Shown: positions 5,343-5,459, counted from the stretch's first letter. The stretch: 9,117 nucleotides of DNA from a virus (IMGVR_UViG_2563366928_000004:1-9117), one strand, 5' to 3'. Numbers and translations: made by a program. The notes: generated from the sequence alone by a model not told the origin.

Positions 5343-5371
5343 TTGACAATGAGAACTGTTTTCATTTAAAA
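5343..5371 (+). promoter_or_regulatory. Possible sigma70 promoter: perfect -35 TTGACA (5343-5348) with a weak -10 (tttaaa/ttaaaa at 16-17 bp)
   Basis: Seen directly; the -10 is poor, so confidence is low. Confidence 0.2.
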
Positions 5372-5421
5372 AACCGATATACGAAAGCATCTTTTCTTTA
5401 CATTCTCCATTGGGATTACCT

Positions 5422-5459
5422 CCGCCAGCTTCCATTCCTGCCGCTGGCGGCCTTTTTTT
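5422..5459 (+). terminator. Plus-strand intrinsic terminator: 8-bp stem ccgccagc/gctggcgg, 13-nt loop, then a T7 run
   Basis: Hairpin plus TTTTTTT at 5453-5459 in plus-strand polarity, directly abutting the nanS-p stop (5461) on the opposite strand. Confidence 0.45.

Follow-up and report, generated by a model that had tools for sequence, protein, structure and literature searches.

Does the short spacer between an esterase gene and the lysis genes of a prophage hold a small RNA (sRNA) gene? The question arises in a 9,117-nt stretch of viral DNA (IMGVR_UViG_2563366928_000004; hereafter, the window), which is the late region of a lambdoid, Stx-phage–like prophage with its late genes read on the minus strand. 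A nanS-p–type sialate O-acetylesterase gene (658 aa; 5461–7437, minus; an ORF with Pfam DUF1737, SASA, and DUF6645, whose relatives are annotated in RefSeq as SASA family carbohydrate esterase) is followed there by a DUF1378 gene (5142–5324, minus; ORF and Pfam match), the next late gene, and the order of the lysis region is DUF1378, DUF826, holin (4544–4759, minus), lysozyme, and Rz. Between nanS-p and this DUF1378/holin cassette, a unit at 5343–5459 lies on the plus strand. An identical stretch in Escherichia coli AR_0013 has the same gene annotation with the 136-nt spacer left empty, and RefSeq records leave the unit unannotated. A sequence-only reading had described it as an orphan promoter-like element and terminator that might define a plus-strand RNA of 80–90 nt, antisense to the late-operon spacer. 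We consider it probable that the unit is a complete and autonomous sRNA gene, whose product would be an Hfq-dependent, base-pairing sRNA of ~82 nt made by the lysogen.

The window also holds other features of interest. Rfam 15 (E ≤ 1) has no match at 5343–5459; its matches in the window lie elsewhere, as an STnc100/PasD-like sRNA (8044–8233, minus; RF02076, 131 bits, E = 1.8e-29, full-length) and three tRNA genes upstream of it (8314–8560, minus). STnc100 has been reported as related to PasD and EcOnc13, and together with the plus-strand unit it makes up a “convergent sRNA pair” flanking the esterase and iraM morons. The latter is an ORF of 111 aa that runs opposite to the late genes (7683–8018, plus); it has no Pfam match and is annotated at the identical AR_0013 locus as the anti-adapter protein IraM (WP_000871291.1). 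The segment 7438–7902, which takes in most of the iraM ORF, matches the iraM flank of E2348/69 PP5 at 99% identity across 465 nt, and the ORF appears to be a moron that would stabilize RpoS. Downstream of Rz, a 126-aa ORF (1487–1867, minus) with a TonB_C domain is a TonB family protein in AR_0013, and a 296-aa ORF (3649–4539, minus), in which the DUF1327 match is confined to the first 100 residues, has an AR_0013 counterpart labeled as a truncated YdfR pseudogene.

Promoter, terminator, and predicted RNA

The unit begins with a perfect −35 hexamer, TTGACA (5343–5348, plus), 19 nt from the DUF1378 start codon on the opposite strand, and continues into a weak, A-rich −10 region (5366–5372, plus). 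Both were read in the sequence, and both are as the sequence-only reading had described them. The best −10 candidates, TTAAAA (5366–5371, at a spacer of 17 nt) and TAAAAA (5367–5372, at a spacer of 18 nt, with four of six matches), lack the conserved final T, and for this reason a consensus-based promoter scanner called no promoter at 5343–5372. The TTGACA hexamer by itself is at chance frequency: the window contains 4 copies, and 6.2 ± 2.6 are expected. A 98-aa ORF on the plus strand (5339–5635) was not accepted as a gene, since Pfam has no match for it and VT2-Sakai and other alleles have ATT or ATA in place of its ATG.

At its other end, the unit carries a hairpin with an 8-bp stem and a 13-nt, pyrimidine-rich loop (5422–5450, plus; from folding), in which CCGCCAGC (5422–5429) pairs with GCTGGCGG (5443–5450) through seven G-C pairs and one A-U pair. 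The stem, with its GCCAGC/GCTGGC core, is followed by CC and a T7 tract (5453–5459, plus) that supplies a U-tail of at least 6 nt; this is the layout of an intrinsic terminator on the plus strand. The GC-rich stem and T7 proposed earlier are thus present, and the hairpin folds at −15.1 kcal/mol (z = −3.5), a value that none of 200 shuffles reached. The T-run ends 1 nt from the nanS-p stop codon (5461–5463, minus), which the terminator had been said to abut, and the ORF listing agrees that no plus-strand ORF ends at the terminator. The loop exceeds the typical 3 to 8 nt, and a terminator scanner found only the inner 5-bp stem because its loop limit is 8 nt. A bidirectional terminator was considered and rejected: the sequence that comes after the hairpin on the minus strand is AGGUAAUCCCAAUGG, which has no U-tract, and the terminator is therefore unidirectional. 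The sequence-only reading had also offered, as an alternative to an sRNA, a terminator that protects nanS-p from convergent transcription. The terminator stood, but the opposition between the two did not: it would stop the sRNA’s own transcription at the nanS-p stop. In EPEC PP2, an equivalent terminator is reported to catch read-through from PasA, seen as a 236-nt minor species.

With the hexamer at chance, no promoter called, and only an inner 5-bp stem found by the scanner, the sequence of one window is therefore not decisive. The signal above chance lies in the joint occurrence of promoter and terminator and in the retention of this pair at homologous loci.

What RNA would such a unit produce? 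PasA (85 nt) and PasC (79 nt) are sRNAs of EPEC E2348/69 that Pearl Mizrahi et al. (2021) detected with Hfq RIL-seq and Northern blots. In both, the reported 5′ end lies exactly 35 nt after the first T of TTGACA, the −10 is A-rich, the terminator is GCCAGC..GCTGGC, and the RNA stops at the last T of the T-run. According to Zhu et al., the PasA 5′ end could be a product of processing and not of initiation. The motif and its spacing are present and conserved in the window unit, and by this geometry a sigma-70 promoter with a perfect −35 and a weak, A-rich −10 would start transcription near 5378, while the intrinsic terminator (8-bp stem and U7) would place the 3′ end at ~5459. The predicted RNA (5378–5459, plus) is thus ~82 nt long, within the class range of ~80 to 110 nt. 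Folding, which had been proposed as a check, singled out the hairpin; the 82-nt RNA as a whole has no unusual degree of structure (z = −1.7). After a short 5′ part and ahead of the hairpin lies a U/C-rich linker (5390–5421, plus), mainly unpaired in the minimum free energy structure, that contains UUCUCCAU (5403–5410) and CCUCC and is a candidate Hfq-binding and seed region. Its positions T62, T64, C65, C66, A67, and T68 are invariant or nearly so in 23 aligned alleles, and the UUCUCCAU/CCUCC stretch is a putative seed. The succession of U-rich linker, hairpin, and U7 is the layout usual for Hfq binding.

Retention and conservation in related prophages

How consistently is the unit kept? We examined 80 IMG/VR viral contigs that encode relatives of the C-terminal half of nanS-p (85 to 99% protein identity), using as the pattern TTGAC[AT], a 55- to 75-nt body, a CCGCC[AG]G..C[TC]GGCGG hairpin, and T5–9. 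The unit adjoins the esterase stop on the opposite strand in 78 of the 80 loci, and the other two end less than 60 nt past the stop. The hairpin conservation check suggested earlier thus found the unit kept in every one of the 78 informative loci, in 34 distinct sequences and with a T-run of 5 to 9 in every allele. More widely, the spacer matches 975 of 5,426 complete E. coli genomes at 2,195 places, and a query of the spacer with its coding flanks matched ~300 Stx-phage records, including VT2-Sakai and VT1-Sakai at 83 to 84% identity. In a collection with one genome per species (genome_contigs), a protein-seeded scan found no nanS-p relative, and a DNA-pattern scan of its 596 Gb gave 12 matches in unrelated MAGs, about the chance expectation.

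Conservation within the unit is concentrated in its control elements. Across the 23-allele alignment, the −35 (0.04 bits, with TTGAC invariant) and the stem arms (0.16 to 0.25 bits) have the lowest entropy of all segments; in the −10 region, T24, A28, and A29 are invariant, and T25 and A26 are nearly so. The most variable block (5373–5382, plus; 1.16 bits) surrounds the predicted 5′ end, and entropy outside it ranges from 0.04 to 0.85 bits. Seven core stem pairs are preserved in all 16 hairpin types (80 copies); stem pair 6 changes from A-U to G-C in L085, and pair 8 changes from C-G to U-A with U.G as an intermediate; these few compensatory changes give a covariation signal that is modest but consistent. 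This pattern fits a promoter-to-terminator unit. The promoter is also retained where the upstream sequence is unrelated (alleles L059 and L070–73), so that the DUF1378 leader does not account for its conservation.

Could the unit nonetheless be what remains of an EcOnc32/Pas-type sRNA gene that is silent or in decay, its −10 too weak for use and its hairpin and TTGACA hitchhiking with nanS-p? True relics do occur elsewhere, in E2348/69 PP6 (a 3′ arm with a short T-run) and as a PasA-3 variant without a terminator (Zhu et al.), and the −10 lacks its final T. The main caveat comes from EHEC Sakai, where the Sp5 and Sp15 copies, 84% identical, are absent from the list of 63 sRNA candidates that Tree et al. 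(2014) obtained by Hfq-CRAC; this absence may stem from filters, multi-copy mapping, or a real lack of expression. A relic is nevertheless unlikely in our judgment. The −35 and −10 region are near-invariant across the 34 alleles while the adjacent 10 nt vary freely, the −10 regions of PasA and PasC are equally weak and yet both RNAs are abundant, and the unit persists in all informative loci. A weak, A-rich −10 is likewise found in EcOnc52.

The PP6 remnant itself is a degenerate unit after the esterase (L099 6374–6440, minus), with the 3′ arm GCTGGCT and a short T-run and no 5′ arm, and the unit can therefore decay. A check of PP6 for a window-type copy that could be traced in the RIL-seq tables found this relic only.

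Conservation of a duplex is strand-symmetric, and part of it could therefore serve the late mRNA. The hairpin would then be a 3′ stabilizer or processing site of nanS-p, with TTGACA and the T-run incidental, and GGAGG-N8-AUG (5421–5408) and GGA motifs would load ribosomes or bind a regulator before the lysis genes. The minus-strand hairpin does fold better (−18.2 kcal/mol), and a strong Shine–Dalgarno sequence and an ATG follow it, the ATG being there in 13 of 13 alleles examined, including PasA and PasC. We regard this explanation as improbable; it leaves the polarity of the T-run and the fixed −35 unexplained. The T-run always lies on the plus-strand 3′ side of the hairpin, so that the late strand has an A-run before the hairpin, which has no known purpose there, and no U-tract after it; TTGAC is invariant at a fixed distance; and relatives demonstrably make the antisense RNA. 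The mini-ORF that follows the ATG ranges from 4 to more than 29 codons and changes frame between close alleles; thus, it is not a conserved protein. In the window, this late-strand mini-ORF has 14 codons (5410–5366, minus; MENVKKRCFRISVF) and comes after the hairpin and GGAGG-N8-ATG; in several alleles the ORF runs on through the conserved promoter, which gives its product the ending ..FLNENSSxCQx. The late strand has four GGA motifs in ~50 nt here (5366–5421). A type I toxin–antitoxin system was rejected, as the mini-ORF is not hydrophobic and its length and frame vary in the same way.

At the position between the esterase stop and the holin (hereafter, the slot), two or three units often stand in tandem, all in one orientation and each equipped with a TTGACA and a terminator (three units in L075–L079; two in L059/L064, L070/L072/L073, and L084), and a second sequence clade at the slot has the stem CCACCAG..CTGGTGG. 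In EPEC PP2 (L002 2368–2635, minus), PasA is followed by an EcOnc52-like unit that occurs as RNA2 in RIL-seq at 743267–743294. A further allele type (L007–L009, L013, L020, L038, L061–L063, L065, and L082; ~2144–2275, minus) has the same CCGCCAGC..GCTGGCGG stem with a different body, ~40 nt between the CCGCCAG and CTGGCGG core arms, and a predicted RNA of ~97 nt. Finally, a late-strand hairpin with the CCGCCAG motif (GCCGTCAGTGGGTGACACTGGCGGC and a T-run) occurs just upstream of the holin in PP2, PP5, and Sp12 (L002 2734–2763, plus; L003 2545–2574, plus; L005 788–817, minus), and its match to the covariance model described below is weak (10.7 bits).

Hfq-bound relatives at the esterase–holin slot

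Is the unit related to sRNAs that have been validated elsewhere? The nearest validated relative is EcOnc32. Our covariance model, built solely from window-type alleles, matched E2348/69 PP4 just upstream of the holin (L100 1116–1241, minus; 29.9 bits, E = 0.004 in 348 kb). The PP4 copy (L100 1114–1241, minus; NC_011601 1060613–1060740) is identical in sequence to the unit of Sakai Sp3 (L101 ~779–905, minus), which is EcOnc32, and the published EcOnc32 probe is the reverse complement of this Sp3/PP4 sequence. The homology extends to the body: the PP4 unit body aligns to the window and VT2-Sakai bodies at z = 4.3 and 4.9, with none of 1,000 shuffles as good. Blocks shared between the window and EcOnc32 bodies are TTGACAAT.A, CCGAT.T, TTCTCCA, and GGGA.TA, the last two forming a TTCTCCA..GGGA.TA arrangement common to the window unit, EcOnc32, and the EPEC PP4 unit. 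After EcOnc32 come the final ~20 nt of an otherwise deleted esterase gene, and EcOnc32 therefore belongs to the same slot.

In Sakai, the EcOnc32 CRAC peak (901574–901662, minus) has the second highest area of all candidates, and a Northern blot gave a band of ~112 nt (Tree et al. 2014). The EPEC RIL-seq tables list it as a coding sequence, E2348C_1013 (Pearl Mizrahi et al. 2021); the PP4 copy is unchanged from EHEC and was not named as a Pas sRNA. In RIL-seq, E2348C_1013 behaves as a very abundant Hfq-bound sRNA: it is RNA2, at 1060613–1060672 (minus), in 100% of its chimeras, it accounts for ~808,000 further fragments on Hfq, and the hfq mutant has a level lower by log2 2.9, or 7.5-fold. Its partners are the nlpD–E2348C_3010 intergenic region (537 chimeras), which we take to be the nlpD–rpoS spacer, the entC 5′ UTR (263), the IE2 intergenic region (72), and the dnaK 5′ UTR (28).

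A second set of relatives occupies the slot as well. PasA and PasC are encoded opposite flanking esterase and holin genes, their stability depends on Hfq, and their RNA-seq levels are lower in an hfq mutant (Pearl Mizrahi et al. 2021); in EHEC Sakai, Hfq-CRAC gave peaks for EcOnc51 and EcOnc52 (Tree et al. 2014). Locating the PasA and PasC sequences from the published coordinates, we found that the PasC 3′ end lies 2 nt from the esterase stop, that the EcOnc52 peak (Sakai Sp4) overlaps that stop, and that EcOnc51 (Sp12) is the PasA equivalent. Among 25.7 kb searched with the covariance model, the four best non-self matches were PP2 unit 2, EcOnc52, its Sp12 copy, and PasC, followed by EcOnc51 in fifth place (E = 1) and PasA lower (E = 2.5); all six matches (E = 0.003 to 2.5) spanned the full length and lay on the correct strand. 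The scores of PasA, PasC, and EcOnc52 (18 to 25 bits) are within the range of motif-only control loci, which are unrelated loci picked by the −35/stem/T-run pattern from 596 Gb (18 to 39 bits). Whole-unit alignments gave z of 5 to 6, values inflated because the ends are shared. Alignment of bodies alone gave z of −1.1 to 1.7 for the window against PasA, PasC, and EcOnc52, with no detectable similarity; direct body homology to these three was therefore set aside, and what the window unit has in common with them is slot, orientation, and frame.

For these relatives, transcription, size, Hfq binding, and Hfq-dependent stability were demonstrated by others. The comparative evidence, together with validated RNAs at the same slot elsewhere (PasA, PasC, EcOnc51/52, and EcOnc32), supports a short plus-strand RNA from the window unit, with a predicted length that falls in the range first suggested. 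The label “orphan” has to be dropped, since convergent prophage sRNAs are a class already described and the unit falls within it. Points that weigh against an sRNA gene include the weak −10, the 13-nt loop, and the confinement of the PasA/PasC/EcOnc52 similarity to the frame. For the window allele itself, expression, 5′ end, Hfq dependence, seed, and targets are predictions, and we consider the unit most likely, on comparison of sequences, to be a widespread unnamed allele of a known kind of prophage sRNA gene.

Proposed mode of action, significance, and comparison with known systems

How might such an RNA act? Made in the lysogen, it would act in trans and in an Hfq-dependent manner on host or prophage mRNAs, probably by pairing through the UUCUCCAU/CCUCC stretch, which is complementary to ribosome-binding-site–like sequences. 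The sRNA promoter would face polymerases driven from PR′. Because the RNA is perfectly complementary to the nanS-p–DUF1378 spacer, after induction it would pair with that part of the late transcript, and polymerases would collide.

The same complementarity raises the possibility of a module that acts purely in cis, damping late-operon read-through into the lysis genes in the lysogen by polymerase collision and duplex cleavage by RNase III, and lacking targets in trans. The promoter lies close to the DUF1378 start codon, PasA chimeras include the 3′ end of the esterase mRNA, and lambda OOP is a precedent. Yet relatives have many trans partners on Hfq, with 41 interactions for PasA and the nlpD–rpoS intergenic region and the entC and dnaK leaders for EcOnc32/E2348C_1013, which makes a purely cis role very improbable. 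Furthermore, the RNA does not overlap the DUF1378 ribosome-binding site, and Q-modified polymerase, abundant after induction, reads through terminators.

What would a trans-acting sRNA at this locus mean? A full-text literature search with six fragments of the unit and with EcOnc32/51/52/13 found no relevant paper, and the locus is not mentioned in a 2025 review of phage sRNAs or in Sy et al. (2020). A BLAST-based census placed Pas genes in just 43 phage genomes; it does not appear to count the window allele, the region of which matches ~300 phage records. If the window allele is expressed, most Shiga-toxin phages (933W/Sakai-type included) and many non-Stx prophages would carry an unannotated regulatory RNA, and the small number of Pas genes in BLAST censuses would be explained by a slot filled with diverged alleles. 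Relatives at the slot rank with the most abundant RNAs bound by Hfq in EHEC and EPEC, and their partners include virulence and stress mRNAs; another widespread allele would therefore extend the part of host regulation that prophages encode. For annotation, the locus merits an ncRNA gene entry instead of an empty spacer, and EcOnc32 in EPEC is currently hidden under the doubtful coding sequence E2348C_1013.

We also offer a broader reading, which is tentative: the esterase–holin junction might be a cassette site for one to three tandem, fast-diversifying Hfq sRNA genes with a common frame and exchangeable bodies, at which the window allele is expressed and pairs with host leaders such as nlpD–rpoS and entC. 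The window allele and EcOnc32 have the UUCUCCA stretch in common, and the window allele is carried by classical Stx1 and Stx2 phages and about one-sixth of complete E. coli genomes. If this reading were true, carriage of Stx prophages would be linked to RpoS and iron regulation. As a separate observation, the RpoS anti-adaptor gene iraM lies in the same window.

How does the unit compare with other known systems? In common with AsxR and AgvB, the putative sRNA gene sits in the moron region of a prophage, downstream of PR′, and would be transcribed from a promoter of its own against the late operon. AsxR and AgvB are bound by Hfq and combine a variable 5′ end with a conserved 3′ part. Their location, between stx/tR′ and the esterase, is across nanS-p from the window unit; they are 51 to 60 nt long and unrelated to it in sequence. 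Neither family (RF02703/RF02702) has an Rfam match at E ≤ 1 anywhere in the window, and membership was rejected on the lack of a match to their ~42-nt 3′ region and on position. Lambda OOP, a short convergent RNA of ~77 nt at cII/O, resembles the unit in having its own promoter and intrinsic terminator and in running convergently into the 3′ end of a phage gene; it differs in location and sequence and in acting in cis via RNase III.

EcOnc32 is closer. Both units converge with the late operon just upstream of the holin and abut the 3′ end of an esterase gene, which in Sp3 and PP4 is a remnant (..TTTTTTATTATGCTGC..) of a deleted gene, whereas the window esterase is present. Common to both are the TTGACA −35, an A-rich −10, the GCCAGC/GCTGGC terminator core, the U-tail, and an alignable body, in which ~50% of positions differ. 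The EcOnc32 stem is longer (GCCAGCGCAGA..TCTGCGCTGGC) with a different loop, its Northern size is ~112 nt against the 82 nt predicted for the window unit, and its expression and Hfq binding have been demonstrated, whereas those of the window unit are predictions.

PasA, PasC, EcOnc51, and EcOnc52 occupy the same slot between esterase stop and holin in the same convergent orientation, and the window unit opposes the late operon as they do, with its T-run 3′ of the hairpin and ending at the esterase stop. The frame common to all of them consists of TTGACA, 35 nt to the 5′ end and an RNA of 79 to 85 nt (both predicted for the window unit), GCCAGC..GCTGGC, and U7. Their outer stem pairs are A..U, unlike the CC..GG of the window unit. 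As in the window, the terminators of PasC and EcOnc52 touch the esterase stop, and such units can be tandem.
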